Numbered from the stretch's first letter, positions 17,310 to 55,152 are shown. The stretch: 55,152 nucleotides of DNA from Candidatus Saliniplasma sp. (GCA_048622455.1 JBMCUO010000002.1:1-55152), one strand, 5' to 3'. The notes: a model not told the origin generated them from the sequence alone. Made by a program: numbers and translations.

Positions 17310-17714
17310 TTAAGGTTCGTAGACGAGTTCATCTGAATATTTATCGGTACCTGCTATCAGGAACTCGTCAGTGAACTCGAAACAGCTTTTCGGGCATATA
17401 TCGACACACTGACCGCAGAAGGTACATCTTGCGACGTAGTGTTTCACCTTGCGTTTCTCTTCATTGAAAGTCAGTGCTTCAGAAGGACATACTTGCACAC
17501 ACAGTTGACAGCCTATACATGCATCGACATCGTATGTCAGCTTACCCCTGTAGTTCTCTGGAATTTCAACAGGAGGGTTGATCTCCAACTTCCCGTCCTC
17601 GATGAGCTTGGCAGCTCCATGCATATTCTTTGGTGTATATTTCACCGGGAAAGGGTTGGTCGCTTTCTTAGTTACGAGCTGTTTAATCAATGTGAATATA
17701 GTAGATGTTGGCAT
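17310..17714 (-). CDS. mbhN: Mbh subunit N, 2x[4Fe-4S] ferredoxin-like (NuoI/HycF-like)
   Basis: CIGCQLCVQVCP and CTFCGQCVDICP. Confidence 0.85.
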   Translation of the reverse strand: MPTSTIFTLIKQLVTKKATNPFPVKYTPKNMHGAAKLIEDGKLEINPPVEIPENYRGKLTYDVDACIGCQLCVQVCPSEALTFNEEKRKVKHYVARCTFCGQCVDICPKSCFEFTDEFLIAGTDKYSDELVYEP

Positions 17715-17728
17715 ATCTTAATCACCTC

Positions 17729-18730
17729 TCAAAATACCACTCCTTCGATAAAGACCAGTAAAGTCCCCAGGAGTCCGATAAGTGTCATGGGTACCCAGTA
17801 GAAATAGCTGGCCTTATCTATCTGAAATCGTGCCACAGCCACTCTAACAACGGATACCGATACAAATATTATCGCAAGCAGTTTCAGTAGGAAGAATGCA
17901 ATATCTGCGATCAGGTCTCCGATGACGTAACCGAATATCTCCGGCCCACCGATGGTAACCCAGTTTGTGATATTGTGAGGGAAGAACAAAGCTATCATCA
18001 AGGATCCGACCACTATCATCTTCACTGCTTCAGCCAGATAAAATACACCCAGGTTTCTACCCGAATATTCCACGAACAACCCCTCGGCAAGTTCTGTTTC
18101 AGCTTCAGATTGATCGAAGGGTACTCTAGAGAGTTCACCAGGTAAAACGCTGAAGAGTGCTACCGCAACGAGTAAGAGGCCGAGCATCCCCATTGGTCCG
18201 ACCAACCACCATACTGGGGTCGATGATATTACACCTAACGAGAATGTTTCGAACTTCCATGCTACAGTAACTGCTGTGATAGCAAGGGGGAACTCGTAGC
18301 TCATCATAAGGACCAACTCACGCTGGGCACCAACTGTAGCATATGGCGATCCAGAAGCCAGACCACCTATGGCCATGGCAACCGCCGGAATCGCAAGTAA
18401 ATAAAGGATCAATATCAGGTCGCCGTAGCCCTCCATTATCGGTTCAAAGGGACCTAAAGGAAGATAAACCAGGGCTACCAAAGTGGCGATCAATGCTACC
18501 AGGGGTGCTGCGTTGAAAAGCCACGGGACTGCCCCATCAGGGATTATCGTTTCTTTCATGAACAATTTCCTGATATCTCTGAAAGGCTGTCTCCAAGGAG
18601 GTCCGATCCTTGACTGCATCATGGCGGTGATCTTACGGTCGAAACCTTTGTAGAGCAGTCCTAAAAATATTCCTATGAAAGGTATTACCATAGCGTAGAA
18701 CAGAGAAATTATGATTTCTTCGTAGTTCAT
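17729..18730 (-). CDS. mbhM: Mbh subunit M, membrane anchor (NuoH/HycD-like)
   Basis: Polytopic 333 aa. Its start overlaps the mbhL stop. Size and position match the canonical operon. Confidence 0.8.
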   Translation of the reverse strand: MNYEEIIISLFYAMVIPFIGIFLGLLYKGFDRKITAMMQSRIGPPWRQPFRDIRKLFMKETIIPDGAVPWLFNAAPLVALIATLVALVYLPLGPFEPIMEGYGDLILILYLLAIPAVAMAIGGLASGSPYATVGAQRELVLMMSYEFPLAITAVTVAWKFETFSLGVISSTPVWWLVGPMGMLGLLLVAVALFSVLPGELSRVPFDQSEAETELAEGLFVEYSGRNLGVFYLAEAVKMIVVGSLMIALFFPHNITNWVTIGGPEIFGYVIGDLIADIAFFLLKLLAIIFVSVSVVRVAVARFQIDKASYFYWVPMTLIGLLGTLLVFIEGVVF

Positions 18731-19968
18731 AGCTCATCACCCAACATATCTTTGGTTTTTCTAACACTCATCTCGTGTAGTTCTTCATGGGTATATGAAT
18801 TCTGTTCACCACTGTTGATGTCCACTATCTCTGCCCTATCCATACAGCCTATGCAGGGGTCGATACATGCAGCGATTATCGGGATATCAGCTATCTGTTC
18901 ACCCATGAACATCGGAGCATAAGTGGCCAGATTGTTGTACGTAGAAGCTCTAACCTTCCAGTTATCCAGTTCTTCCATACCTTCTTTCAATCTTACATAG
19001 TGAAGAGCCTCTCCTCTTGGAGCCTCTATACGTCCGATACCCTCTCCATGGGCCTTCTTCAACTTGTTCAATAGTGCAGCTTTGTTGGATTCACTGTCGA
19101 TATCCCCATCGGGCATCTGTTCAACACACTGTCGTATCAACTCTATTGCCTGAAATACCTCTTTCAACCGGACTAGAGTCTTTGAGAAAACGTCTCCTTT
19201 ATTTTCATACCCGTATCGGGAAGGTATAACATAATCAAATTCAAGATCACCATAAGCTGCGTATGGTTGATCGATACGAACATCTTTTTTAACTCCCGAA
19301 GCTCGGACCGTGGGTCCGACACCACACAGCTCCAAAGCCTTCTTTTCAGTCAATATCCCGATATCTCTTGTTCTCATCCTTATACTGGGATCGCCTAGGA
19401 ATATCTCTTCGAGCTTATTGTATAACTTCTCATAATAACGTAAAGTGTCTTCGACCTTGGGATGCATATCTTTAGTGATATCCCTACGGACTCCACCTAC
19501 AGTCCACATGGAGTAGTTCACTCTATTGCCAGATATGTATTCAAGGAGGTCCATGACTTTTTCACGGATCTTCCATGTGAAGTGAAGATGGGTATCGAAA
19601 CCGATCTCATGAGCGGCCACACCCGCCCAAAGAACGTGTGAGTGTATCCTTTCAAGTTCACACATGATGGTTCTGATATATCTCGCTCTGTTAGTAGGTT
19701 CTATACCTGTGGCGTGCTCAACGGCAGTTGTGTACATATGTTGGTGAACTATGGAGCAAATACCACATATACGCTCCGAAAGTGGGATAACTTTCAGTGG
19801 GTTTCTGTGCATCCCCATGAATTCGATGCCCCTGTGATTCATACCGGGGTGTGGGTCAGCATCTACTATAGTTTCACCATCCAATCTGAACTGGATCATG
19901 AAAGGCTCTTTCAATGCTGGATGTATTGGACCTATCGGGACTTCATAAGTATTATCTTCATCACTCAT
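18727..19968 (-). CDS. mbhL: Mbh [NiFe] hydrogenase large subunit (NuoD/EchE-like)
   Basis: Both Ni-binding motifs are present: RICGICS near the N-terminus and DPCIGCMDR at the C-terminus. Start set at MSDEDNTYEVPIGPIHP (19968), overlapping the mbhK stop. Confidence 0.9.
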   Translation of the reverse strand: MSDEDNTYEVPIGPIHPALKEPFMIQFRLDGETIVDADPHPGMNHRGIEFMGMHRNPLKVIPLSERICGICSIVHQHMYTTAVEHATGIEPTNRARYIRTIMCELERIHSHVLWAGVAAHEIGFDTHLHFTWKIREKVMDLLEYISGNRVNYSMWTVGGVRRDITKDMHPKVEDTLRYYEKLYNKLEEIFLGDPSIRMRTRDIGILTEKKALELCGVGPTVRASGVKKDVRIDQPYAAYGDLEFDYVIPSRYGYENKGDVFSKTLVRLKEVFQAIELIRQCVEQMPDGDIDSESNKAALLNKLKKAHGEGIGRIEAPRGEALHYVRLKEGMEELDNWKVRASTYNNLATYAPMFMGEQIADIPIIAACIDPCIGCMDRAEIVDINSGEQNSYTHEELHEMSVRKTKDMLGDEL

Positions 19969-20554
19969 CTTCTTCACCTCCTTCTCTTGGTTTCTCTGCA
20001 GTTGGAGGTACAAAGGCTTCTTTCTCGTCATGTACATATCTAGACTGATCTTCCACGCCTTTATCGTCCCATCTCCATGGATACTTATCCTCGGGGAACA
20101 CCTCGTCCAACCAGAGTCTCCTCGAATCCGGTATATCCTTGACTTCAATTCCTAGAAATTCCTGTTTTTCTCTTTCAGTAGTTATGGCACCAGGGACTAA
20201 ATCAGTTATAGTGGGTATGGTTGGGTCGTCTTTAGGTAGGTGTACTTTAAGATTGACAATCACCTCCTCTCCAGGATATCCATAATTCACTGCGAAATGA
20301 TATATTAATTCTATTACATCACCTTTATCTGAACCCGATGTCACGGATAGATGCGGGACCTGCAGTTCGGAGATCGTCTTAACAGCATCTCTGAATTTGT
20401 CCCGTTCAACTTTCAACCAGATAAGCTTCATCGGTGGACTCTTGAGACCCTTTTCGATCTCTTCAGTGGATATCTCTTCTATTCCATCACCAAGCTCCTC
20501 TTCTAGATGATCTTTCATCTCATCTAATTCCAGAGGAAGCTGTATTTCTTTCAT
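19961..20554 (-). CDS. mbhK: Mbh subunit K (NuoC / 30-kDa-like)
   Basis: Position and size match. ERE..F.GI-type NuoC core (TTEREKQEFLGIEV). Confidence 0.8.
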   Translation of the reverse strand: MKEIQLPLELDEMKDHLEEELGDGIEEISTEEIEKGLKSPPMKLIWLKVERDKFRDAVKTISELQVPHLSVTSGSDKGDVIELIYHFAVNYGYPGEEVIVNLKVHLPKDDPTIPTITDLVPGAITTEREKQEFLGIEVKDIPDSRRLWLDEVFPEDKYPWRWDDKGVEDQSRYVHDEKEAFVPPTAEKPREGGEEDE

Positions 20555-20994
20555 TTATCATCACCTCTAAGTTTTTCTAAATATAACCAGGCTTCTTTGA
20601 CTCCGTTTATGATGTTCTCAGGACGTACGGGACAGCCGTTCACATAAAGTATGTGTGCATCATCTGGAAGAAGAGAATCTATAGGCCCCTCTATGGCATA
20701 ACTGTCATAATAGACACCAGTGGTAATTCCACAGTTACCTATTACCATCACCACCTTAGGGTCTGGGGTCTGCTCATAAACTCTCATAACTCTTTCTTTC
20801 ATCTTCTTTGTGACAGGGCCAGTGAAAAGCAATACGTCCGCATGCCTTGGAGAACCTACCAGTTTGATACCGAATCGTTCCGCATCGTATCTCGGAGTGA
20901 TAGCTGCAACTATCTCTATGTCACATCCGTTACACGAACCGCTGTTCAAGTGGAAGACCCAAAGCGCCTTATCGAATGTCTTTGATAACTTCAT
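20551..20994 (-). CDS. mbhJ: Mbh small subunit J (NuoB-like, proximal [4Fe-4S])
   Basis: GSCNGCDIE, GNCG and GCPVRPE cysteine motifs. Confidence 0.9.
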   Translation of the reverse strand: MKLSKTFDKALWVFHLNSGSCNGCDIEIVAAITPRYDAERFGIKLVGSPRHADVLLFTGPVTKKMKERVMRVYEQTPDPKVVMVIGNCGITTGVYYDSYAIEGPIDSLLPDDAHILYVNGCPVRPENIINGVKEAWLYLEKLRGDDK

Positions 20995-21005
20995 TTTATA
21001 ACACC

Positions 21006-21344
21006 TTACATTAGTATATATAGGAACACCAGCACCACGGCCAGTGTCACCACGAACCAGTAAACGTAATCATTCACAATGCCTGTATGTCCTTTAACCA
21101 AGGGGTCTAGGTATTTTCTTAAAGCCTGCATGAATCCCCAGTATAGGTTATCCCCGCCTACGTGCAAACTTTTCAGGTCCTTAGGCGGCCTGTTACCGGA
21201 TATGAACGGGTCACCTTTGTATTTCGTACGTTTGTAATCTGGATTCCCCATCAAGTAGAACATGTAGGCGATCAGCGTTACCAGCAACCCCACTATTATG
21301 AAGAGTATGGGGCTCCAAGCATCTTGGAGAACTATATCTATCAA
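21006..21344 (-). CDS. mbhI: Mbh subunit I (2-TM)
   Basis: 112 aa with two TM helices, in the canonical position between H and J. Confidence 0.65.
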   Translation of the reverse strand: MIDIVLQDAWSPILFIIVGLLVTLIAYMFYLMGNPDYKRTKYKGDPFISGNRPPKDLKSLHVGGDNLYWGFMQALRKYLDPLVKGHTGIVNDYVYWFVVTLAVVLVFLYILM

Positions 21345-22861
21345 GCTCCCACCCCCAGTGCTTCCACAGCGGGTACAATGATCTCCGCTACCACATAGTT
21401 GGGGAATAGGCTGAAAACAGCCACGACGATAGTTAAAATAGTCATGGCCAAGATCATACTGCGGGGAACTTTCTGACCGATCCCCTGGTCAGGTCCCAGG
21501 AATGCATTGAAGAATATCTTGCCGATCAAAGCAAGCGTTACTATACTTACCACCAAAGCGATTATGGCAAGAAGTGGATTAAAAAGATAAACAGATTCGT
21601 ATATCATCAGTTTAGAACTGAAACCTGACAGCGGGGGTATGCCTGCAATGGATAGTCCACCTATTACGAAAAAGAAGGTTGTATAAGGCATGTGATGTGC
21701 TAAACCACCGAGTTTATTCAGATCCCGGGTGTCAGCAGCATAGATTATACCGCCTGCTGATAGGAATAGAAGTGCTTTGTAGATCCCATCGTTTATCATA
21801 TGGAAAAATCCACCTTCGATGGCTCCGACACCGAATTCACCGTACTCAGCGGTTTCTAATGTTGCAAATCCCACACCGACTGCCATCATCATGTAACCTA
21901 TCTGAGAGACCGATAGATATGCGATAAGTCTCTTGAGGTCACTCTGTTTGAGAGCCATGCTCACTCCGATAAACATGGATAGAACACCTAAAACGATGAG
22001 GATACTGCCCAAAGATGAAGGTTCCACAGCACCTCTGAATACAAAGAATATCAGTCTGAATAGTACGAATAAGGACCCCAGAGAAGTAATAGCTATGAAC
22101 GGGGTTATAGGTTCTGGTGCTTCCGAATAAGCATCGGGGGCCCACATGTGCATGGGGACACTGCTGGCCTTCATGGCTAGTATGACCATAATCATACCTA
22201 TGGCGAGTATATCGATGAAGCTGCCGGTCAAAGAATCACTAATCAAAAAGAAATTCAGAACACCGTATTCTCCGTAGAAGAAACCTATAGAGAAGAGAAG
22301 TAACAATCCCGCGATGACGCTTATGACCATGTATTTTAGAGCCGCTTCTATGCTTTCACCTCTTTCATTATGGTAGGCGATCAGACCACATGATGCGATG
22401 GAAGTTACCTCGAACCATACGAAGAGGTTAAAAAGATCAGAAGTGAGTACCATCCCGTTTACACCTGCTAGTGTCAGCAGGAAAAGGGTGTAGAATTTTC
22501 CTAACCCTTTAGATTCTTTCATGTTCCCAAAGGAATAGATACCGGCTCCAACCGCAGTTATTATGATCGTTAGGGTGGCCAGTACTGAAAATCCATCGGC
22601 TAGGAAGGTTATCCTGAAAAAGGATTGATCGGTCAGACCTGTTGTGGGTTCCGCAGCTCCGAATACGTATATCCAACTACCCATGGTGTAAACTTCATAG
22701 GCCATCAGTGATACGAATAGAGCCGTTAAAAGTAGTCCTATGATGAAGACGGCATTTCTTAATTCCTTGGAAACGTTATTTGCTAGAGGAGTCAAAAACG
22801 CGAATAAAAGAGGGATAGCTAATATAAATACAGGTGATTGAACTAATAAGTCAATATTCAT
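21341..22861 (-). CDS. mbhH: Mbh subunit H, MrpD/NuoL-M-N-type antiporter-like subunit
   Basis: 506-aa polytopic protein with a proton-antiporter fold pattern. Overlapping start/stop with its neighbours. Confidence 0.85.
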   Translation of the reverse strand: MNIDLLVQSPVFILAIPLLFAFLTPLANNVSKELRNAVFIIGLLLTALFVSLMAYEVYTMGSWIYVFGAAEPTTGLTDQSFFRITFLADGFSVLATLTIIITAVGAGIYSFGNMKESKGLGKFYTLFLLTLAGVNGMVLTSDLFNLFVWFEVTSIASCGLIAYHNERGESIEAALKYMVISVIAGLLLLFSIGFFYGEYGVLNFFLISDSLTGSFIDILAIGMIMVILAMKASSVPMHMWAPDAYSEAPEPITPFIAITSLGSLFVLFRLIFFVFRGAVEPSSLGSILIVLGVLSMFIGVSMALKQSDLKRLIAYLSVSQIGYMMMAVGVGFATLETAEYGEFGVGAIEGGFFHMINDGIYKALLFLSAGGIIYAADTRDLNKLGGLAHHMPYTTFFFVIGGLSIAGIPPLSGFSSKLMIYESVYLFNPLLAIIALVVSIVTLALIGKIFFNAFLGPDQGIGQKVPRSMILAMTILTIVVAVFSLFPNYVVAEIIVPAVEALGVGA

Positions 22862-23208
22862 TCTCTACACCTCCTGATATCATCGGAATTTATACTGCCA
22901 TAGTGCTTTTTCAGCATGATCACGAACGAAAGCATCAACGCAGTCGTAGCCACACCTATGACGATACTGGTGAGTGTCAGCGCGTGTGGGGTCGGTAATA
23001 CCATATCTGATGATGGGGCACTCGTCCAAATCGGGGCGACGTATCCCTCACGATAGGCTAGTGAAACCAGAAACAGGTTAGCCCCGTTCTGCATCAGAGT
23101 TATACCCATTATTATCTTGATCATATTTTTCTTAAAGAGAACTGCATAAAGACCCATTATCACTAACAGTACGACCATGACCATCGGGAATATCGTGAAC
23201 CAGTTCAT
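22858..23208 (-). CDS. mbhG: Mbh subunit G (MrpC/NuoK-like)
   Basis: 116 aa, 3 TM, canonical order. Confidence 0.75.
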   Translation of the reverse strand: MNWFTIFPMVMVVLLVIMGLYAVLFKKNMIKIIMGITLMQNGANLFLVSLAYREGYVAPIWTSAPSSDMVLPTPHALTLTSIVIGVATTALMLSFVIMLKKHYGSINSDDIRRCRE

Positions 23209-23672
23209 TCTTCCACCTCCAATGCACCACTTCTTTTAGCCATCATCCATAAGATAAGACTCAATGCCGCGGCGACCTCCATCCCCACGACTATGTTCAT
23301 AAGTGGGACCGTTCCGCCAGTGTTGATATAACCGGAATTGATACCATTTACTGTCCCACCAAATATACCTCCGGTACCTGCTAGAGAGTTGTAGAACAAC
23401 GAGAAGCCCATTATGATCCCCAATAGGGCAAGTAAAAAGAAACAGGTTAAACCGGTGGACTCCATTGTTGAAAAATCGTTCTTGTTATCTCTCATGGCAC
23501 CCCGAGCTACGATCAAGAGTGCTGTTGCAGAAGCGATCACCGCTCCTCCTTGAAAGCCTCCTCCTGGTGTAAGGTGACCGTGAACTATCAGATATATTCC
23601 AAAAACGACGATGGGAACCACCATAACATCAGCTACAGTGCGTACTACCACGGACATCTTCCAATCCATCAT
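23205..23672 (-). CDS. mbhF: Mbh subunit F (MrpB-like)
   Basis: 155 aa, 4 TM, HLTPGGGFQGG MnhB-type motif. Confidence 0.75.
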   Translation of the reverse strand: MMDWKMSVVVRTVADVMVVPIVVFGIYLIVHGHLTPGGGFQGGAVIASATALLIVARGAMRDNKNDFSTMESTGLTCFFLLALLGIIMGFSLFYNSLAGTGGIFGGTVNGINSGYINTGGTVPLMNIVVGMEVAAALSLILWMMAKRSGALEVEE

Positions 23673-29561: not shown

Positions 29562-31073
29562 TCACATTATCGGTACTAAGTCGATATGAGGTACCTTTTC
29601 TCCACTGCTGACTATGGCATAAAGTCCCGTTTTTGGCTTTATTCCGTAGATACACGGTGTTTTATTTATACTATTTATGACGAAATAGTTATCAGCCATG
29701 TTCTTGATTTCACTAGCCACTTTTAAACCGTGTTTAACGAGTCCGATACCTAATTTATTGGATGCCTTGGTGTTCGCTACGGCTTCTAGTAGTTCTTTTA
29801 TAGCTATTTCATTCCCCATCAGATACTCCATAGTATCGAATCCAGTGTATTCCAATATGGGTCTGTTCTTGTCTCCCCTGATATCTTTCATGTGCTTGGT
29901 GTAAATCTTCCCTACTTCGTCTCGACTTTTTCCACCTAAAGCCATCATGTAAGGCTTGTCAGATTTCGGGGAGAAATAATCGACTATCCTAAATCGTTGA
30001 TTGAATTTTTCAGATTTTACGAAACGAACTATGTCGTCCCTTAGGTTTTCTGGATGAGTACCTCCAGAAAGTACTGCAAGTACGCCTCTATCCCTAGTTA
30101 AAAAGTTTAGGAAGATTGGTCTGATCACTGAAAAGTACTCCTCGTTGCTGACGTTTTCTTTAACTTCGAACACGTTGTATGTCCCTTTACCGAAACCTCC
30201 TCCTAATATCTCATCTAAGTCTTTTGTTCCAGTGCTGTACTTATCTTCCGTAGTTTCCAGAGGTTCCCATTCGAGTTCACCCGCTTCTGGTATGCGATAA
30301 GGTTCGAAACATTTAAATCTACCACCGCTGAGCGTCATTAGATACGATGGTTGTTCGATACCTACACCTCTTAACTTGATAAGATGTATCTCTCTAACAT
30401 TTCTTTTATCCAACTGGTATCTATTTAATTCTACGACACCATCGACCAAATATTCTAAATCTTTTGCATCCGACTTCTCCAAGACCATGATCAGATTGGT
30501 ATTGGAGTTCTCTGCTAGATCCTTTTGGAGAGTCATTATAAATTTCTCTTCGTCGATACCGTATTTGCTGGTTATCCCTTCAACGCTGTCGATGACAAGC
30601 ATAGGTCTTTCAGGTAATATCTGGTCTATTCTATCATATATCCTCACCAGGGCGGGTATCTTTTCATCTAGACTGTTCAAATAAGTCCTATCTACGTTTT
30701 CTGGAGGCCCCCCTTCTTCTATCTGATCTAAAAATTGCTTAGCAGATTCGATCTTCTTCTTTTCAGATTCTGGCAATTCATCATCTTCCTCCTCCTCCTC
30801 GGAATATATAGCTTCCAGGAACATCTTACTTGAATCAAGAACCCTGCTTTTCATCTCTTTCTCTTCCAGCCATGGGAATTGTTTGTAAAGACTCTGGTCG
30901 GAAACCCTGGTGGATAAGTAAAAGCTCTTGTCAGGGTGTCCCATCTCTTCGATCAACTGCAGTGCTAGAGTAGTTTTACCTGTACCTGCAGACCCTTTTA
31001 GGAAAAGGGATGACCCTCCTCCTTTGTTCAGAAATTCTATTATCTCTTTTGGGATGCCTTCTATATTTGTCAT
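29562..31073 (-). CDS. KaiC-like/RecA-superfamily ATPase, two lobes (second lobe degenerate)
   Basis: Lobe 1 has Walker A LKGSAGTGKTTLALQL and Walker B MLVIDSVEG. Lobe 2 has LGGGFGKGTYNVFEV without a GKT P-loop. Confidence 0.75.
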   Translation of the reverse strand: MTNIEGIPKEIIEFLNKGGGSSLFLKGSAGTGKTTLALQLIEEMGHPDKSFYLSTRVSDQSLYKQFPWLEEKEMKSRVLDSSKMFLEAIYSEEEEEDDELPESEKKKIESAKQFLDQIEEGGPPENVDRTYLNSLDEKIPALVRIYDRIDQILPERPMLVIDSVEGITSKYGIDEEKFIMTLQKDLAENSNTNLIMVLEKSDAKDLEYLVDGVVELNRYQLDKRNVREIHLIKLRGVGIEQPSYLMTLSGGRFKCFEPYRIPEAGELEWEPLETTEDKYSTGTKDLDEILGGGFGKGTYNVFEVKENVSNEEYFSVIRPIFLNFLTRDRGVLAVLSGGTHPENLRDDIVRFVKSEKFNQRFRIVDYFSPKSDKPYMMALGGKSRDEVGKIYTKHMKDIRGDKNRPILEYTGFDTMEYLMGNEIAIKELLEAVANTKASNKLGIGLVKHGLKVASEIKNMADNYFVINSINKTPCIYGIKPKTGLYAIVSSGEKVPHIDLVPIM

Positions 31074-47241: not shown

Positions 47242-47328
47242 TTTCGTTCGAAAAAAAGATTTTAATAATACCACGGTGAACCGGTTTTATATTATGGTGA
47301 TATTGTGAGCGATAAAGGCCGGAAAACC

Positions 47329-47967
47329 ATGCTGATATTCGACCTCGACGGAACGCTGTTCAAGACTAGGGATGCCGTTGTACCAGCAGTTCAGGAGAGT
47401 TTGGAAGAGTTGGGGATCCCATCTGTTGGTGAGGATAAGATCATCTCTCTCTTAGGCGAATCTACGTCGATATTCTCCGAGAAGGTTATGGAAGGTCATG
47501 AGGACAAGTTGGAGGACTTCATGGACATATTTTGGTTAAGGGAAAAGGAGAACGTCGATGAACACGGTAAGCTGTTTGACGGGACCCAGGAGATGTTGGA
47601 GAAATTGAGGTCTTCGGGTTATGCTTTAGCTGTTTGCAGTAACGGCAGTCAGGAGTACGTGGATTATGTATTGCATGTGACCGGGATCTCCGACTATTTC
47701 GATCTGAAGGTCAGCAGTTCCCAGCACGACAACAAAGGGGCTGCAGTCAGGGAGATCATCCAGGAAAACAATCACTCTGATTACATCATGATCGGTGACA
47801 AGCATCACGATTTTCAAGCCGGTAAAGACAACAACATCTTGAGCATAGGCGTGAAGTATGGCTACGGGGAGCCGGAGGAGTTGAAACAGGCCGATTATCT
47901 TGTCGAGAGTCCAGAGGAGATACCCGATGTTGTTTCACGTATAGGTGAGTTATTAACAACGTTATGA
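47329..47967 (+). CDS. HAD-superfamily hydrolase (phosphatase)
   Basis: Motif I MLIFDLDGTLF, motif II VCSNG, motif IV GDKHHD. Start trimmed to the ATG before motif I. Confidence 0.8.
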   Translation: MLIFDLDGTLFKTRDAVVPAVQESLEELGIPSVGEDKIISLLGESTSIFSEKVMEGHEDKLEDFMDIFWLREKENVDEHGKLFDGTQEMLEKLRSSGYALAVCSNGSQEYVDYVLHVTGISDYFDLKVSSSQHDNKGAAVREIIQENNHSDYIMIGDKHHDFQAGKDNNILSIGVKYGYGEPEELKQADYLVESPEEIPDVVSRIGELLTTL

Positions 47968-48012
47968 ATATTATGAAGTGATGCAATAGCCTCTAAAAGG
48001 AGTTTAGAGATC

Positions 48013-48792
48013 ATGAGGAAATTCAAAGCTGCTGCAGAATAGATGGATTTGATAGGTGGAGATAAAAAGGAGAATCTTAAGAAAGCTATCGGATTGATAA
48101 AAGAAGCCGCAGGTCAAGGTGCGGAATTGGTATGTCTCCCTGAATATCTTCCGACCGGATTGGTCAGTGATAGGTTAGATGAGCTATCCGAACCTATCCC
48201 AGGTGAAAGCACTGAAATACTGGGAGAAGCCGTAGAAGAAAACGGAGTTTTTGTAGTTTTTTCCATGGCCGGGAAGTTTGATGTGGACATATACAATACT
48301 GCAGTACTTTTAGGTCCCGAAGGAGGGATAATAGGGAAGCATAGAAAGATGCATCGTTTTCTTGAGGAACAGGAATTTGTGATTCCTGGTCATGACTACA
48401 CCGTGGTTGATACAGATATGGGCAAACTTGGTTTGAAGGTATGTTACGATGCCGTTTTCCCAGAATTATCTAGGACTCTAGCTTTGCTAGGTGCCGACGT
48501 TCTTTTGGTCCCTTCGAACTGGCCGGACCCCTTCGAACCTCAATGGAATTTGGCCACTTCCGCAAGGGCCTTCGACAACCAAGTATGGCTTATCGCAGCC
48601 AACAGGATCGGAACCGGCGAAGGATACACATATTTCGGCGGCAGCTGGATTGTTGAACCTACTTGAAAAGCAGCAGTTTGTACTGATGGTGAAGAAGGTG
48701 TGACGGTTGGTACCGTTGATCCCGCTGTTACTGAAGGTTTTAAAGGGGCTATCAATTTTCTAGAAGATAGAAGAGAAGATTATACCCTGTAA
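48013..48792 (+). pseudogene. Carbon-nitrogen hydrolase (nitrilase superfamily) with two in-frame stops
   Basis: One frame reads MRKFKAAAE-TAG-MDLIGGDKKENL ... GGSWIVEPT-TGA-KAAVCTDGEEGVTVGTVD...FLEDRREDYTL*. The TAG (48040-48042) sits where the conserved Q of the AxVQM start occurs. The TGA (48664-48666) sits where the conserved G of V.P.G occurs. The E/K/C catalytic context (LPEY, HRKMH, KVCYD) is intact. Confidence 0.7.
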
Positions 48793-48864
48793 AAACTTAG
48801 GGGATCGAACAGGATGAGTTCCCTCTACCGATGCTAGAATAAATTTATGAATTTTTCTCTATCA

Positions 48865-48910
48865 AAAATAATATATATTCTAATCGTATTATACTGTTAA
48901 ATTTGGAGGA
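48865..48910 (+). promoter_or_regulatory. Candidate TATA region (AAAAATAATATATATT) and Shine-Dalgarno GGAGGA upstream of the giant gene
   Basis: A/T-rich box at 48865-48879. GGAGGA at 48905-48910, 8 nt before ATG 48919. Confidence 0.35.
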
Positions 48911-48918
48911 AAATTTAC

Positions 48919-51900
48919 ATGAAAATACGTGCATGCATGTACAAAATAATTGTAGTTTTGGTGATAGGTTTGCTGATGTTGACCGTTCTTGAAGGTACTG
49001 CTGGAAATCCTTTTAAACAGGGGCGCCAGGAGGACCAAGTGATTGATGAAGATGGTAACACCCATAAGATATATTCTCAGGGTGGGGACATCTATTATAA
49101 GAACGATATCGGAAGTAGTACCAATCTACCTTTTACCCGCTGGAACGATCCCGTACGTTTGACGGACACTCTGATGCCGGCTTTCCACCCGCGTATTGAG
49201 ATCTCGGATGGTTTTGTATACGGAACTTGGGTACAAAAACATCCCGAAGAGGACAGGTTAAACTACGCCGGAAGTTTGTTAGAAGACCCAGAAACATGGG
49301 GTTCACCTATAGATGTAGCTGAAGTACCTGAAAATCTCACCGGGTACAAGTACGAGATGGAAGTAGTGGACGGTACTGTTATGCTGTGCTGGGATGGGGA
49401 ATGTGAACTCTCGTGGAGTGCGGATATCGATGGTGATATGATCCCCGATATCGAGGATGAGAACCCGCTGGAATACGATGTCGAGAACGATCACGTTGAT
49501 TTTGAACCCGATGTCGTATCTATCGATCCCGAACTAGACGTATCGGTAGCTTTAGCTTTTGAAGATGAGGACGACGTTCTTCCCACTATCGAGGAGGTCG
49601 AAGGTGATTTTGAACACTCTATAGGGAGGTACGTTAACATCGATGTTGAAACAGATTCCGGATATAGAGGGTTGGTAAAATCGGGATACGGCTGGTCTGA
49701 AAACACTTCCGAGTACCTGCGTGTTTATCGTGAAACGGATGAGGTTTGGTCCGTGGTGACTGATTGGGAAGATGATGAGTACACGGGAGTCAACCTTGAG
49801 CGAGAGCACAGCTGGGCATTGGTCAATGAACTAGGGACTTTCACTTTAGCTCCGGCCAACGAGATAGACGGCGATATCGACGGTCTATCCGACCTGACGG
49901 AGGGAACGGAACCGGAGGATTTGACCGATACCGTTCACACTCATTCGAGTTTTACTGATTTAAATTTTGAAGATGAAGAAGTAGTTACACACCTAAATTT
50001 ATCTTTTGAAGAATACAGCATATATACCGTAACGGGGGGTTATATAGAATTGAGTGCTGTGGATCAACCCGTTGAAGATCTAGAACTGGACATTGGAGGG
50101 GACGGCAGGGTCAACTGGAGAGCCACCATGCCCTTGGAAGACAGTACTAGGGTAGGTCAGATCTGGAAACCTATCAACGTTTATATCTTCGAGAATTATA
50201 TCAATACGTGTGAAACTGATCTCGAAGTACCGTTAGTTTTCACTTCCAGCAACGACGCACCGTTCGAGATATCCTACGCGAACGTACAGGTCGAGCAGCG
50301 TATAACGTCGAATTACGAAGTTGATACCAGCGGTGACGGTCTATGGGACGGGTGGCAGGATAGGAACGCCGATATGACGTTCGACCGTGCCGGTGCGGAC
50401 GGAGTATTGGGAACTGAACATGATAATGTTCCCGGTGCCTTGGCATACGGTTTAGATCCAACCGAAGAGCACCTTATCGGTGGTCCGGGTCGTTCAGAAG
50501 TACAAACGTACCACGAAGGGATGAGTTCAGTGAATGCCGTAAGTGGTAATCTTATGCTGGGTGATAGAGACCTAGGATTCAGTTCACTCGCACACGATAT
50601 AGCTGTTGAAAGGAGTTACAACAGTCAGAGCGACCACGAAGGTGTTTTTGGACCCGGCTGGCAGATGAATCACGAACAAAGGTTGGAATTCGAAGATGAT
50701 GATCCCATATATGTAGACGAAGCCGGAACGAGGTACGAGTTCGAACATCTCGGTGACGGTACGTACGAACCCGCCGTTGATAACCCGTATTCAATGGTGG
50801 CGAATCTACCGGAGCCGCCGGAGCAACCCGGGCTTGAAGAAAATACAGTTGATTTTGATAATATCGAGGTTGATTTGATTCAAGTTCAAAATGCTGAAGA
50901 ATACGAACTCCGCCTCGAATGTCAATATCCTAAGACTGTTGACCATTACTCCTTTGTAGATATCCAGAGCGTCAGCTGGGACGGACTTGATCCTGGTACA
51001 GAGTACGAGGTATCGGCAAAATCCATTGATGAGTACGGTCAGGAGAGCAGTTGGACATATCTTACAGTAGAAACTTTGGGTAAGGATGATGGAGAAGAAG
51101 AACCTATGGACACCGATGAAAGTGTCAAAACGAATACAATTTCTAGTACAATTACTTCTTCAGAAAAAGAGTATGTTATCCGTGACACCAACGGTTTAAA
51201 GAGATACTTCAATGAAGATGGTTTGATCAAACGTAAAGAAGACCGCAACGGTAACAATATTTTCTTCAATTACCAGGGAGGTAACCTTGTAAGGATATCT
51301 GATGATACCGGGAAAGAACTGAGTTTGAGCTACACGGACGGTCGTCTTTCCTCGGTAACGGATCCGATCGGTCGAACGGTACAGTATTCTTACAATTCTG
51401 AAGGCTATTTGGTGGAATACACGGATGCCATGGATAACACTTACAGTTACACTTACGAAAACGGTCTGATCGATCGTGTTTACGAACCGGCTAGAGATGT
51501 CGTGGTTGAGGGTGAAACTAAAACTGTTAGAACATTTAAGGAGTACGAATTCGTAGAGGATCCTGTGGAGGGGATGCTTAACAATACCAATCAGGGTTAC
51601 ATAGTTGTAAACAATGAAGAGGCGACCACCTCCGTTGACGAAGAAAAGATACGAACAATATCATCTCTTGATTACGACTATGCCTCTAGTACTTCTCTTT
51701 ACGATGCCTCGGATAACGAAACTCTGGACGTATTCGATGAATCTGAAGCTGTGCGTATCAAACACGTTAATCCTGATGGTAATGAGTCACATTTCGACTA
51801 TGATGGTGAACTCAACAATAATAAAGTGATCGATAAGAAGGGTGGTGAGTGGACTACCGATCATGGCCCGCTCGGGACCACCGAGGAATTTATTACACCT

Positions 51901-54900
51901 TTGGGGGATGTCGAGTACTGGGATTGGGATATCAAGGATACTGATGAAGAGTTCATAGCAGTGATGACTGAATATATCAACGAGATGGGAGACCAATGGA
52001 TAAACGAGTTTGATGATAATTTTAACATGGTCCAATCTATCGACAGTTCAGGGTCAGTCACCGAATACGAGTATACCGATGACGGACAGATGTCTAGAAG
52101 GATCGAACCCAACGGTGCTGTGTGGGAGTACGAATATGACGGGTACGGCAATCTGATTAAAGAGATAGATCCTGAAGGTGCCGTCACGGAACACGAGTAC
52201 GATTGTGTCAACCGCAAAGTAAAAACCGTTTCACCCAACGGTGCGGTCACCGAGTACGCTTACGACGAACTTGACAGAGAGATCGAAGTTATAGATGCTT
52301 ACGGTAACACCGAGGAATCGGTTTACGACTCCACCGGTAACCTTATAGAACGTACGGATAAACTCGGCGCCACCACCACATACGAGTACGATCATTACGG
52401 ACGGTTAGTTCGTGAAACGGATGCCCTAGGTAACTCTATGGAGTACGAGTATGACGAACGGGATAACGTCATCAAAGAGACCAACCGACGCGGTTTCCCG
52501 ACGTACCGTGAGTACGACGAGATGAACAGGTTGGTGCGTGAAGAAGATAGATGGGGTAACTATGAAAGCTACGAGTACGACGAGTTCCACAACGTGGTTA
52601 AACGTACTGATAAACTCGGTAATGAATGGGTCAGTGAGTACGACGAAGTAAATAGACTAGTAGCGGAATACAATCCGTTAGGTGAGGGGACACAGTACGA
52701 ATACGACGAAGCGGGTAATATGATCAAAGAGATCGACGCCATGGGTTACGAGACAGAATATGAGTATGATAGTGAAGGCAGTTTGGTCCGTACGGTGGGT
52801 GCCGAGGGTAGTGAAGTTCTTTACGAGTACGACGAAGTCGGTAACCAGGTATCGGTGACTCAGGTAGGCGATGAAGTCAACTCCGAATGGCAGTACGAAT
52901 ACGACCTACTCGGCCGTAAAGAAAAAGAGATCACACCACTGGATGAGGAATACACGTGGGAGTACGACGAAGTCGGAGATGTTGTGAGGTACGAAACTCC
53001 TTCAGGTGATGTTACAGAATACGAGTACGACCTTTTAGGTAGGTTAACGCAAGTAGAGCTTCCCAACGCAGTCGATATAGATATTGAGTACACCCTTTTC
53101 GAGAAGGAACGAGAGGAGTACGATCACCCACCGAGGTTGACTTACCTGCATCCATACGCACCTCAGATAACAGCGCAGTCGCAGGAGTATGACCTCTTAG
53201 GCAGATTATCCCGGGAGAGTTGGCAGGTCAACGGTGACGAGTACGATATCTCGTACGTTTACGATGAAGAAGGAAATGTCATCGAGATGACGGATCAGTT
53301 GGGTAATGTGACGAGTTACACGTACGACTGCCGCAACCGGCTCCGCAGTGTGACAGACCCGGACGGTGATACCACCGAGTACAATTACGATCCCGCTAAC
53401 CGGTTGACTGAAACCATCTACCCGACTGGGACGAAGATCTTGAGAGATTACGATGATGCTAACCGTTTAACGAAGATATCTAACGTTAGGTCGGATTCGT
53501 CACTGATTTCATCTTTCGAGCACGAGTACGATGCCAACGGCAGGAGGACACTCATGCGTGAGATGAGGGATGAAGGTAAAGTTGGTGAACATTCTTCCAT
53601 GGATTTAGACAAGAACGATAACGCCCACGTAAGTTATTACGATTCCACTAGAGGCGACCTGAAATATGTTTATCTTGCTGGAGATAAACCGGTGATAGAA
53701 ACCGTTGACTATGACATAGATATAGGTGAAGTCACCTCATTGAAAGTTGATGATGACGGAGGGGTGCATATCAGTTATCATGATTCCTCCCAGGGCACAT
53801 TGAAATATGCCACCCGGACATCTGATGGATGGGTTACCGAGACCGTCGATGAAGGTGATGTCGGTGAATACTCTTCAATAGATATCGACGGTAGTGGCGT
53901 GGTACACATAAGTTATTACGATTCTAACGATGGTGTTCTAAAATATGCCAGGTCGACCAACGACGGTTGGAGTACCGAAGTTGTAGATGACGGTGATGAC
54001 GTGGGTATGTATTCTTCTATTGCAGTGAGTGAAGAAGGAACGGCTCACATAAGTTATCATGATGTTTCCAATAAAAATCTAAAATATGCTGAGTATAACG
54101 GTGGGGGATGGTCCATCGTGACCGTTGATGATAGCATAGTTGAATTTGATACATCAATCGCACTAGATCAGGATGGTCACCCCCGTATTAGCTATGTCCA
54201 ATTGAGGCCTGAGGAGGATGATACGGTAATTCAGTCTGATTTAGAATTGAGCCTTAGATACGCAGCCTACACCGGAGACGACTGGATCATCGAAACGGTT
54301 GACGAAGGCGATGTGGGTAAATTCTCGTCGATAGCAGTCGATGCAGACGATAATACACACATAAGTTATTACGATTCCAGCAATAGTGATCTAAAGTACG
54401 CTGAAAATATTGATGGTTACTGGAACTTGGAAACCGTCGATAGTGACGGAGATGTGGGCAAATACTCCTCGTTATCAATTGATGGCCAGGGTGACGTACA
54501 TATAAGTTACTACGACGCATCCGACTCGAACTTAAACCTCGTGAAAGGGACTGGTGCTGATTGGAGTACCGAATCGGTGATCAGGGGTTCTAGTATGTTC
54601 GAAACCCACTACGAGTACGACGGCGAAGATCGTCTGACATATGTCGATTACCCGGGTGAAACGTCCGTAGGTTACGGATACGACCGAAGGAGTAATATAA
54701 ACAAAAGGACATATTATGAAGGCAACGAGGTGGAAAACGAAGTGACGAGCGAGTATGATGAAGGGAACCGTTTAGTCAACATGGATGGAGTTGAGTACGA
54801 GTACGACGAAGAGGGCAACCAGCTGGGAGTCGATTCTGAAGGAGATTCGTCATTCATGTCAACGTACCTAAGTGGTGAGAAGTTGAACTACCGTATGGAA

Positions 54901-55152
54901 GTTGTCGGTGATGAGGATTCCGGTGTACCGGGTACTTCGTACGGTTACTCCCTGGACGGACGACGTGTAGGTAAAGAGATCGCATGGGACGAAAATGATA
55001 CGACCGAATGGGAGCGTATCCATTACCTGTATGACGGCCAGAACGTGCTCTACGAGTACGGAGACAATCATCCGACGGTACGCTACACACACCCTGTCGC
55101 CTGCGACGGTGGAGTCTGCGGACCGACATCCGATGCTTTCGTGGACGCACCT
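48919..55152 (+). CDS. Giant secreted RHS/YD-repeat protein, 5' partial (at least 2078 aa, runs off the window)
   Basis: I translated this frame by hand and found no stop from ATG 48919 to nt 55152. N-terminal hydrophobic signal/anchor (IIVVLVIGLLMLTVL). Rhs N-terminal signature VNAVSGNLMLGDRDL...ERSYNSQ...GPGWQ. Dozens of YD repeats (G..TEYEYD..GRL). It is absent from the ORF track only because it has no stop in the window. Confidence 0.85.
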   Translation, partial: MKIRACMYKIIVVLVIGLLMLTVLEGTAGNPFKQGRQEDQVIDEDGNTHKIYSQGGDIYYKNDIGSSTNLPFTRWNDPVRLTDTLMPAFHPRIEISDGFVYGTWVQKHPEEDRLNYAGSLLEDPETWGSPIDVAEVPENLTGYKYEMEVVDGTVMLCWDGECELSWSADIDGDMIPDIEDENPLEYDVENDHVDFEPDVVSIDPELDVSVALAFEDEDDVLPTIEEVEGDFEHSIGRYVNIDVETDSGYRGLVKSGYGWSENTSEYLRVYRETDEVWSVVTDWEDDEYTGVNLEREHSWALVNELGTFTLAPANEIDGDIDGLSDLTEGTEPEDLTDTVHTHSSFTDLNFEDEEVVTHLNLSFEEYSIYTVTGGYIELSAVDQPVEDLELDIGGDGRVNWRATMPLEDSTRVGQIWKPINVYIFENYINTCETDLEVPLVFTSSNDAPFEISYANVQVEQRITSNYEVDTSGDGLWDGWQDRNADMTFDRAGADGVLGTEHDNVPGALAYGLDPTEEHLIGGPGRSEVQTYHEGMSSVNAVSGNLMLGDRDLGFSSLAHDIAVERSYNSQSDHEGVFGPGWQMNHEQRLEFEDDDPIYVDEAGTRYEFEHLGDGTYEPAVDNPYSMVANLPEPPEQPGLEENTVDFDNIEVDLIQVQNAEEYELRLECQYPKTVDHYSFVDIQSVSWDGLDPGTEYEVSAKSIDEYGQESSWTYLTVETLGKDDGEEEPMDTDESVKTNTISSTITSSEKEYVIRDTNGLKRYFNEDGLIKRKEDRNGNNIFFNYQGGNLVRISDDTGKELSLSYTDGRLSSVTDPIGRTVQYSYNSEGYLVEYTDAMDNTYSYTYENGLIDRVYEPARDVVVEGETKTVRTFKEYEFVEDPVEGMLNNTNQGYIVVNNEEATTSVDEEKIRTISSLDYDYASSTSLYDASDNETLDVFDESEAVRIKHVNPDGNESHFDYDGELNNNKVIDKKGGEWTTDHGPLGTTEEFITPLGDVEYWDWDIKDTDEEFIAVMTEYINEMGDQWINEFDDNFNMVQSIDSSGSVTEYEYTDDGQMSRRIEPNGAVWEYEYDGYGNLIKEIDPEGAVTEHEYDCVNRKVKTVSPNGAVTEYAYDELDREIEVIDAYGNTEESVYDSTGNLIERTDKLGATTTYEYDHYGRLVRETDALGNSMEYEYDERDNVIKETNRRGFPTYREYDEMNRLVREEDRWGNYESYEYDEFHNVVKRTDKLGNEWVSEYDEVNRLVAEYNPLGEGTQYEYDEAGNMIKEIDAMGYETEYEYDSEGSLVRTVGAEGSEVLYEYDEVGNQVSVTQVGDEVNSEWQYEYDLLGRKEKEITPLDEEYTWEYDEVGDVVRYETPSGDVTEYEYDLLGRLTQVELPNAVDIDIEYTLFEKEREEYDHPPRLTYLHPYAPQITAQSQEYDLLGRLSRESWQVNGDEYDISYVYDEEGNVIEMTDQLGNVTSYTYDCRNRLRSVTDPDGDTTEYNYDPANRLTETIYPTGTKILRDYDDANRLTKISNVRSDSSLISSFEHEYDANGRRTLMREMRDEGKVGEHSSMDLDKNDNAHVSYYDSTRGDLKYVYLAGDKPVIETVDYDIDIGEVTSLKVDDDGGVHISYHDSSQGTLKYATRTSDGWVTETVDEGDVGEYSSIDIDGSGVVHISYYDSNDGVLKYARSTNDGWSTEVVDDGDDVGMYSSIAVSEEGTAHISYHDVSNKNLKYAEYNGGGWSIVTVDDSIVEFDTSIALDQDGHPRISYVQLRPEEDDTVIQSDLELSLRYAAYTGDDWIIETVDEGDVGKFSSIAVDADDNTHISYYDSSNSDLKYAENIDGYWNLETVDSDGDVGKYSSLSIDGQGDVHISYYDASDSNLNLVKGTGADWSTESVIRGSSMFETHYEYDGEDRLTYVDYPGETSVGYGYDRRSNINKRTYYEGNEVENEVTSEYDEGNRLVNMDGVEYEYDEEGNQLGVDSEGDSSFMSTYLSGEKLNYRMEVVGDEDSGVPGTSYGYSLDGRRVGKEIAWDENDTTEWERIHYLYDGQNVLYEYGDNHPTVRYTHPVACDGGVCGPTSDAFVDAP
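51166..53583 (+). repeat. YD/RHS repeat array (coding), first block; a second block resumes at 54580-55152
   Basis: Recurrent ...G..(T/E)YEYD..(G/N)(R/N)L(V/I)...D..G pattern every 20-22 aa. At the DNA level it appears as recurring GAGTACGAGTACGAC. Confidence 0.75.
53584..54579 (+). repeat. Seven tandem units of about 47 aa (beta-propeller-like) inserted in the YD shell
   Basis: Units follow G(E/K)YSSI.(V/I)D..G..HISYYD....LKYA.....W..E.VD..GDV. Unit 1 starts GEHSSMDLD and unit 7 ends DWSTESV. Unit 5 carries a 10-aa insertion. Confidence 0.6.

Follow-up and report, generated by a model that had tools for sequence, protein, structure and literature searches.

In bacteria whose polymorphic Rhs toxins are injected by a type VI secretion system (T6SS) or by Tc machinery, the biology of these toxins is well understood. 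The WapA-type Rhs/YD toxins of Gram-positive bacteria, which are exported by the Sec pathway, were reportedly described by Koskiniemi et al. in 2013, and predicted archaeal polymorphic toxin systems are said to have been treated by Makarova et al. in 2019. By which route the cargo of a Sec-exported cocoon reaches its target is, to our knowledge, known to nobody. Here we analyse a gene at positions 48919-55152 on the plus strand of a stretch of 55,152 nucleotides from Candidatus Saliniplasma sp. (GCA_048622455.1 JBMCUO010000002.1:1-55152; this whole stretch is called the window). The gene encodes a giant Rhs/YD cocoon protein and is quite probably the principal gene of a polymorphic toxin locus of the Rhs type in halophilic Thermoplasmatota, with Sec export, a toxic tip, membrane immunity and a propeller grafted into its shell.

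The three structural classes distinguished by Günther et al. include the T6SS Rhs proteins, which have a cork plug, and TcB-TcC, in which the homologous plug serves as a constriction and a propeller acts as gate (PMC8765631). TcB-TcC has an aspartyl autoprotease core, and its β-propeller interrupts the polypeptide of the shell and closes it (PMC8765631). Among the T6SS effectors, Tse5 is reported to carry a membrane-active, pore-forming tip (PMC10684867). In archaea, RHS toxin systems had not been experimentally characterised as of 2021 (PMC8416519). An earlier note on this DNA, made from the sequence alone, had called them poorly explored in archaea; this is a fair description of systems that are predicted but uncharacterised, although they are not unknown (PMC3482391; PMC8416519).

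Results

An Rhs gene with a cork-type plug and a YD-repeat shell

Translation of the gene gave a single frame of 2078 codons that starts at ATG 48919 and is free of stops through base 55152, where the 3′ part of the gene runs off the contig. The mechanical list of open reading frames (ORFs) omits the gene only because it passes over frames that continue past the end of the source. The earlier note had described both the uninterrupted codons and the omission for want of a stop, and frame-1 translation agrees with it.

The protein was assigned to the Rhs family by several matches. Pfam RHS_repeat (PF05593) matches 13 stretches (E 1.6e-82), and in NCBIfam YD_repeat_2x (TIGR01643) matches with E 4.7e-62, together with a partial match to RHS_core. 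T6SS Rhs cocoons rank first among the PDB sequence matches, with E values from 8e-49 (8h8b, query residues 1057-1507) to 2e-25. Teneurin-like chains in the PDB reach only E 1e-16, and the Tc subunits TcB and TcC are absent from the PDB sequence matches of the whole protein. Of the profile searches that the earlier note had proposed, the one for the RHS repeat was thus positive, whereas the plug and propeller families of TcB and teneurins gave nothing: SpvB, TcdB_mid, FG-GAP/VCBS, FN-plug_TEN (PF24329) and TEN_NHL (PF25021) were all without a match at E≤0.1 in the Rhs protein. The precomputed Pfam list for the protein contains TEN_YD-shell (PF25023), which hmmscan at E≤0.1 did not return; this is a generic model of YD shells that also matches ordinary Rhs proteins.

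The first part of the shell, with RHS_repeat and YD_repeat_2x matches, spans residues ~745-1548 (51151-53562, +) and is collinear with the locus of an 83% homologue (L001), with 83.6% nucleotide identity up to 53562. The second part, residues 1898-2078 (54610-55152, +), aligns to L001 8912-9432 at 82.5%, and the orphan cassettes P0202-P0206 begin with sequence that aligns to it as well; it is cut by the contig end. Judged from the homologues, the contig ends ~115 residues short of the end of the Rhs-associated core. The giant cocoon protein, the approximately 800 residues of YD repeats and the resumption of these repeats after an insertion, up to the window edge, had all been noticed earlier and are borne out by the matches and the translation.

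N-terminal to the shell, a cork-type Rhs plug was found at residues ~520-630 (50476-50808, +), in which Pfam DUF6531 (PF20148) matches residues 537-608 with E 1.4e-15. This domain corresponds to what the earlier note had recognised as the canonical Rhs opening strand. A profile made of window residues 520-630 and 21 homologous segments was run against PDB chains. It matched the plugs of T6SS Rhs proteins with E values from 1e-12 to 3e-4, namely 7q97 (E 1.1e-12), 8h8a, 8qjb/c/d, 7pq5_L (residues 282-372, E 9.8e-9), Tse5 and Tse15. No TcB or teneurin chain of the PDB was matched by this profile. The plug therefore points to a place of the protein in the cork-plug class of the T6SS Rhs effectors.

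Core, tips and locus layout in relatives

The closest homologues are P0002 (83% identity, 1821 residues), P0003 (60%, 1939 residues), P0004 (40%, 2151 residues) and P0005, annotated Candidatus Thermoplasmatota. At the contig end the window protein terminates in CGPTSDAFVDAP. Past this point P0002 continues after FEDAP with ISATIDGKKYYYMYDGLGS (also ISATIDGKKYYY) into the Rhs-associated core TIGR03696, which matches P0002, P0003 and P0004 with E 5e-21 to 1e-24. The core of 29 relatives ends in N.Y.Y..N(D/N)P....DP(S/T)G; the PxxxxDPxG core motif is present in P0003, P0004 and 27 further relatives and is degenerate in P0002. The median pairwise identity of the 29 relatives is 69% over the last 100 core residues versus 16.8% after the motif, and the drop sets in directly at the end of DP(S/T)G. 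Such a sharp break in identity between core and tip is the signature of polymorphic toxins.

The tips of the relatives comprise 51-168 residues and are often rich in cysteine (up to 16 Cys). Aspartate and glutamate make up 0-18% of them versus ~22% of the remainder of the protein, and ~60% contain a strongly hydrophobic 19-mer. Because the tips are Cys-rich, poor in acidic residues and often equipped with a hydrophobic helix, action on membranes is probable. The tips of P0206-P0213, P0218, P0226 and the main gene of L087 share a loose pattern of (I/L)(D/N)GGGG, a Cys-rich acidic stretch and a hydrophobic C-terminus rich in Gly, Ala and Cys. In composition the tips recall halocin C8, a Cys-rich hydrophobic archaeocin, and a match to a halocin-C8-type family was not found in Pfam or NCBIfam. 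Halocin C8 has been reported elsewhere as fused to RHS repeats (bioRxiv 10.64898/2026.07.27.741052).

One such locus lies in the metagenome-assembled genome (MAG) GCA_964458595.1 (contig CAYWJQ010000006.1; L087/L004), whose SRP54 is 77% identical to that of the window (L022). Here (L087 2862-21173/L004) a gene for an Rhs protein of 1802 residues is followed by an ORF of 61 residues with two transmembrane helices and then by at least nine orphan genes. Each orphan (383-471 residues) consists of a shell end, a core and a distinct tip, and nearly all of them precede ORFs of 59-204 residues with multiple transmembrane helices. The orphan array is interleaved with a NosD/β-helix protein, and a VapBC pair lies after it. 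The layout of the relatives reads as the classical one in which an Rhs main gene is accompanied by an immunity gene and by orphan cassettes, and in which 3′ homology common to them would serve the exchange of tips. Such a layout was described earlier, by comparative genomics, for Methanosarcina acetivorans (PMC3482391).

A second locus, L005/L006, belongs to a related genome. L006 is syntenic with the HAD and CN-hydrolase genes of the window as well as with the promoter and Shine-Dalgarno region, with 84.7% nucleotide identity up to 7 nucleotides before the ATG; L006 1-1761 and L005 1-600 match window 47321-48912 and 55034-55151. From the Shine-Dalgarno region L006 jumps to the homologue of window 55034-55151, which leaves a core-plus-tip gene of 309 residues (P0205), so that the whole 6.1-kb body of the Rhs gene is absent at that locus. 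This body-less allele is a polymorphism of the main gene, either by presence/absence or by rearrangement. Downstream, L005 holds a polytopic membrane ORF of 280 residues, a second orphan in which a core end is joined to a new tip, a membrane protein with a PQQ-type propeller and a shell fragment of 70 residues that is 85% identical to window 54643-54838. PQQ/BamB-type β-propeller proteins with a signal peptide and C-terminal transmembrane helices occur in or beside archaeal Rhs loci at L005 2745-4313 and L003 23260-25542; an immunity protein, a receptor or coincidence are candidate explanations of their presence.

At L001, a homopolymer of 11 G (4340-4400) right after the signal-peptide codons shifts the frame, and for this reason P0002 was called without a signal peptide. 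At its other end (L001 9770-9933) the gene stops 7 codons past the degenerate core, without a tip, and a tiny transmembrane ORF follows. This suggests that the L001 copy is decaying or affected by an assembly error and is not representative.

A seven-bladed propeller inserted into the shell

The two parts of the shell are separated by a lineage-specific in-frame insertion at residues 1549-1897 (53563-54609, +), which forms a seven-bladed β-propeller (fold at residues ~1555-1875) placed in a single YD hairpin turn; some 220 residues separate it from the core. These 1047 nucleotides stand in place of 21 nucleotides (7 codons) of L001. Where L001 reads ANGRRTLMRE, ADGSETS and YEYDGEGRL, the window reads ANGRRTLMRE, then MRDEGKV, the seven blades and RGSSMFETH, and then YEYDGEDRL. 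An AlphaFold2 (AF2) model of the propeller has a predicted local distance difference test (pLDDT) score of 95.7, a predicted template modelling (pTM) score of 0.93 and ~27 strands, and seven repeat units are seen at ~1556-1870. The seven-unit propeller-like insertion of the earlier note is thus confirmed. GC content at third codon positions (GC3) is 0.416 in the propeller versus 0.52-0.55 in the flanking shell.

The propeller segment has no Pfam match and no PDB sequence match. In fold comparisons with Foldseek, the top matches are the Photorhabdus fucose lectins PLL/PHL, which are seven-bladed (TM-score 0.78, E 3e-14). Further fold neighbours in the PDB are GH145 hydrolases, the lectins AAL and RSL, and PL24 lyases, and the top 50 Foldseek matches contain neither a TcB propeller nor an NHL domain. 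More than 3170 sequence homologues of the propeller, with 35-48% identity, are stand-alone secreted proteins of 350-570 residues with weak BNR_4/DUF7253 matches. They carry type IX secretion system (T9SS), PKD, FlgD-Ig, FN3 or MYXO-CTERM domains and come from bacteria and archaea, including Thermoplasmatota (P0117, P0127). The family is a very abundant extracellular module that is apparently undescribed. Giant surface proteins of 1,264-6,384 residues (P0328, P0341, P0347, P0355, P0378, P0395, P0400, P0408 and others) contain many tandem copies of the propeller family, to which they add FN3 arrays, PKD domains, Cys-rich repeats or SLH-like N-termini.

The 80 listed homologues of the window protein include no second Rhs protein that carries this propeller, and P0002, P0003 and P0004 (83%, 60% and 40% identity) all lack it. 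With a query of shell, propeller and shell, the best 150 representatives included 136 Rhs proteins that lack the propeller and no second Rhs carrier; the 12 propeller-bearing proteins among them are surface proteins with several propellers each and have neither YD repeats nor a plug or core. When shell and propeller were aligned together, the propeller homologues were misplaced, their identity dropping from ~43% to ~18%, and this alignment was set aside. A propeller that homologues of 83%, 60% and 40% identity do without is no essential gate. The distribution argues for a graft that is rare, recent and dispensable for the function of the cocoon. Given its size, the closed geometry of its N- and C-termini and its position in the sequence, the propeller should lie outside the shell wall. 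A role in binding glycans or surfaces is the most economical hypothesis for it and the most likely one.

N-terminal region, FN3-like module and start region

Residues 1-29 (48919-49005, +) form a predicted signal peptide or membrane anchor with a K/R n-region, a hydrophobic core of 15 residues and a possible T-A-G cleavage site. The hydrophobic N-terminus MKIRACMYKIIVVLVIGLLMLTVLEGTAG is a helix at residues 2-25 in the AF2 model, in agreement with the signal/anchor helix proposed earlier, and equivalent hydrophobic N-termini are present in P0003, P0004 and P0005. From this sequence we infer Sec export of the Rhs protein. A Pfam scan of the protein showed no PAAR or VgrG-type domain.

Between the N-terminal helix and the plug lies an extracellular region of residues 30-519 (49006-50475, +), presumably a stalk, made of β-rich modules that are split by three DxDxDG-type motifs. 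This region is without a Pfam match and is conserved, with many invariant residues, across P0002-P0005. The calcium-loop-like motifs, ADIDGDMIPD (168-177), IDGDIDGLSD (316-325) and DTSGDGLWDG (469-478), are invariant in five homologues. The AF2 model of the N-terminal 610 residues, made from 5 sequences, is poor (pLDDT 43), with a confident β-sandwich only at residues ~335-460, and its Foldseek matches to jelly-roll and carbohydrate-binding module folds (TM-score ~0.1) are not interpretable. The earlier note had described an acidic region of about 500 residues with three DxDxDG motifs. The motifs stand, but a special acidity does not: aspartate and glutamate make up 21-25% of each segment of the Rhs protein, the host is presumably a salt-in halophile, and a distinct N-terminal acidity was therefore rejected.

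An FN3-like decoration is placed after the plug and ahead of the first YD repeats, at residues ~640-720 (50836-51078, +). Its position is as proposed earlier; the matches behind the assignment are weak and sub-threshold (Pfam fn3 E 0.022; PDB fibronectin E 0.02-0.07). In the 40%-identity homologues P0004 and P0005, residues ~590-850 hold an unrelated domain of ~260 residues without a Pfam match at this site. As the FN3-like module comes only behind the plug and gives way to another domain in these homologues, it is a variable decoration and not the plug. Its site, just 3′ of the plug, looks like a hot spot at which the shell acquires decorations.

Upstream of the gene, a Shine-Dalgarno-like GGAGGA was read at 48905-48910 (+), 8 nucleotides 5′ of the ATG as previously noted, and is kept in L001 and L006. 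The A/T-rich, TATA-like box AAATAATATATATT at 48866-48879 (+), ~40 nucleotides 5′ of the start codon, is a putative archaeal promoter element. This block is kept in the window, L001 and L006 whereas its flanks diverge, and it is likely the archaeal TATA box of the Rhs gene. The gene has a GC content of 0.466 and a GC3 of 0.486, within the GC3 range of 0.33-0.60 of the remaining window genes. An earlier estimate of ~50% GC for the repeat region does not agree with these values, and the horizontal acquisition that had been read from it was rejected, as GC and GC3 fall within the range of the host genes.

Host and neighbouring genes

The SRP54 of the window is 93-94% identical to those of Thermoplasmatota MAGs, including Candidatus Saliniplasma halalkaliphilum. 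Judged by its sequence relatives, the host is an archaeon of the Candidatus Halarchaeoplasmatales group of halophilic Thermoplasmatota. This group comprises halophiles of soda lakes, for which a salt-in strategy is presumed (PMC11332174). Most soluble proteins of the window have isoelectric points of 4.5-5.7, an acidic proteome that is explained by the halophily of the host, presumably of the salt-in kind. Archaeal housekeeping genes in the window include those for TFB, an archaeal phosphopantothenate synthetase, haloarchaeal-type helix-turn-helix regulators, an Mrp/Mbh-like complex and LeuRS.

Partner genes were sought by a scan of the 30 larger ORFs of the window (170-48666). These 30 ORFs are housekeeping or unannotated, and genes for TcA, a T6SS or a contractile injection system (CIS) were not found among them, so that the search for nearby TcA-like partners recommended in the earlier note came out negative. 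The window contains no tRNA gene and no second Rhs or propeller paralogue. A cluster at 17310-23672 (-) encodes proteins like NADH dehydrogenase subunit H, the Complex1_49kDa/NiFe-hydrogenase large subunit and Mrp antiporters, and looks like an Mbh/Mrp-type energy-converting complex. A GvpD-like P-loop/KaiC-type ATPase is encoded at 29562-31073 (-) (GvpD_P-loop E 1.5e-16, GvpD_bR2 E 1.6e-10); no gas-vesicle structural genes turned up among the window ORFs scanned.

Discussion

The Rhs identity of the protein, its type of plug, the insertion and fold of its propeller, and the locus layout and tip polymorphism of its relatives are direct observations. They fit a Sec-exported toxin of the Rhs kind, for which we propose the following course of action. 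The Rhs protein would be exported by the Sec pathway and then displayed on the cell surface or released. Aspartyl autoproteolysis at the DPxG motif would cleave off the C-terminal tip, which would stay enclosed by the shell. The tip would kill neighbours that lack the cognate immunity protein, probably by action on the membrane, and immunity would be provided by a small multi-pass membrane protein encoded directly 3′. Through homologous recombination, orphan cassettes of shell end, core and tip would make an exchange of tips possible. The seven-bladed propeller would be a recent graft in a hairpin turn of the shell wall that projects outward and helps the cocoon to attach to target cells, and not a gate of the TcB type. 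These steps, like everything 3′ of base 55152, are deduced from the Rhs family and the relatives. The earlier note had expected a core, a toxin tip and an immunity gene immediately downstream; in homologues a core, variable tips and small genes that are candidates for immunity come next at the very point where the window stops, and for the window gene such parts are predicted, with good support, by analogy.

Several points weigh against this proposal. The core, tip and immunity gene of the window gene itself lie beyond base 55152 and were not recovered: a scan of genome contigs with the whole protein gave no match that extends the contig, an exact match to the 53 nucleotides at the window end was not found in metagenome contigs, and a protein scan of metagenome contigs gave only L088, a 1.2-kb contig with an orphan fragment. 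P0002 stops 7 residues after a degenerate core (RDLQ, not RDPxG) and has no tip, and the window gene could be a tip-less allele of the same sort. Neither a toxin nor an immunity family of Pfam or NCBIfam was matched by 10 tips and several downstream ORFs, and the probable action of the tips on membranes is read from their composition. The likeness of the propeller to lectins is one of fold, at 11-18% sequence identity to PLL/PHL and GH145, and its outward orientation and place on the shell are deduced from sequence position and size. Finally, the release of cargo by Sec-exported cocoons is unexplained even in the bacterial examples (PMC13018210).

The tip-less end of P0002, the closest homologue, could also mean that the protein is a non-toxic surface adhesin or scaffold, adhesive like the metazoan teneurins and devoid of a functional tip. 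The propeller belongs to a family that serves as a module of surface proteins, and the N-terminal region with its calcium loops resembles the stalk of an adhesin, both of which would suit such a role. We nevertheless regard it as improbable, as the family shows the hallmarks of polymorphic toxins (the sharp break at which core gives way to tip, the orphan cassettes and the small membrane ORFs alongside), the syntenic L005/L006 keeps a core-plus-tip gene together with candidate immunity genes, and the poly-G frameshift in the 5′ part of L001 suggests that the tip-less copy is decaying or mis-assembled. An assembly artefact, with the propeller segment or the whole gene being a chimeric join of metagenomic reads, deserves very little credence. 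The sequence does behave as a metagenome-assembled contig broken inside a repeat-rich gene, the GC3 of the propeller is below that of the flanking shell, and a second Rhs protein with this propeller was not found among the homologues and representatives considered. On the other hand, the insertion of 1047 nucleotides is in frame and stop-free and replaces 7 codons at a hairpin turn, its edges are the boundaries of a complete propeller domain, the YD repeats on both sides are collinear with L001, and the propeller family is present in Thermoplasmatota.

The earlier note had favoured a device with the module order of TcB or of a teneurin, in which the FN3 module plugs the shell and the propeller gates it and docks a TcA-like translocator or a receptor. 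The order of plug, FN3-like module, YD repeats, propeller and YD repeats does superficially recall a plugged shell with a propeller, the propeller of TcB likewise interrupts and closes its shell (PMC8765631), and TEN_YD-shell stands in the precomputed Pfam list. This last model is generic, and the families specific to TcB and teneurins were without a match. The plug is of the cork type, and the best PDB matches are T6SS Rhs proteins, far ahead of teneurin-like chains and with TcB and TcC absent. The propeller sits towards the C-terminal end of the shell, with ~220 residues between it and the core, and is missing from homologues at 83%, 60% and 40% identity; its fold neighbours are lectins and carbohydrate-active enzymes, with no TcB or NHL propeller in the top 50, and no TcA-like gene occurs among the scanned window ORFs. 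A TcB- or teneurin-like architecture is therefore not upheld, and we judge it highly improbable.

As an Rhs toxin, the protein shares most with the T6SS Rhs effectors (RhsP 8h8b, Rhs1 7q97, RhsA/Tre23 7pq5, Tse5 8cp6 and Tse15). They are its best matches in shell and plug, their shell likewise measures ~1200-1300 residues from plug to core, and a DPxG core with a small encapsulated tip has its counterpart in the homologues of the window protein. In contrast to these effectors, the window protein is without PAAR, prePAAR, a VgrG-binding N-terminus or a T6SS, and has a predicted signal peptide with an extracellular region of ~490 residues, an FN3-like module, a grafted propeller and an archaeal host. 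The WapA-type Sec-exported Rhs toxins and bacterial teneurin-like proteins have a signal peptide, a surface region, a YD shell, a small polymorphic C-terminal toxin and an adjacent immunity gene, which are seen in or predicted for the window gene, and they too have no dedicated injection machine (PMC13018210). However, the cell-wall-binding repeats of WapA are irrelevant to an archaeon, and the TIP/TTR, FN-plug and NHL domains of the teneurin-like proteins are absent from the window protein, whose similarity to them amounts to only E 1e-16. The RHS toxins predicted in Methanosarcina acetivorans (Zhang et al. 2012, PMC3482391) are likewise stalked and come with cassettes for alternative tips and immunity proteins. 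The window lineage differs from them as one of halophilic Thermoplasmatota, with tips and immunity candidates outside the described families and a propeller in the shell.

TcB-TcC resembles the window protein in its YD shell, in a plug that shares homology with the cork of Rhs proteins, in a propeller that interrupts the shell and, by prediction for the window protein, in an aspartyl autoprotease core (PMC8765631). The TcB propeller gates an N-terminal opening and docks TcA, whereas that of the window protein is dispensable in close homologues, comes from another family and is located towards the C-terminus of the shell. Teneurins carry a six-bladed NHL propeller and an FN-plug N-terminal to the shell, unlike the seven blades inside the shell and the DUF6531 plug found here. 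For the propeller itself, the nearest fold neighbours are the PLL/PHL Photorhabdus lectins and the GH145 enzyme BT3686 (TM-score 0.70-0.79, E 1e-12 to 3e-14), which likewise have seven blades and are themselves carbohydrate-binding. They share no Pfam family with the window propeller at their 11-18% identity, and the family of the latter is large and uncharacterised, with weak BNR_4/DUF7253 matches.

In kind, then, the system is a known one, an Rhs polymorphic toxin; the lectin-like propeller embedded in the shell wall and the unannotated stalk are new, and no new kind of system is implied. It is possible, though we hold it doubtful, that the cocoon carries a lectin-type propeller of its own, taken from a widespread secreted family, for reading receptors. 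A Sec-exported toxin would in that case recognise the glycosylated envelope of rivals without a T6SS or TcA, the design of a YD shell plus propeller would have been re-invented independently, and new small, Cys-rich, membrane-active tips would be opposed by membrane-embedded immunity in hypersaline soda lakes. The locus family offers a clear archaeal example of an Rhs system, with relatives that show the core, hypervariable tips, candidates for membrane immunity and orphan cassettes in arrays. With and without an embedded propeller, the window protein and its 83% homologue are a natural pair on which the question can be asked whether shell decorations set target recognition. The small unannotated tips, moreover, may be new membrane-active archaeal antimicrobials.

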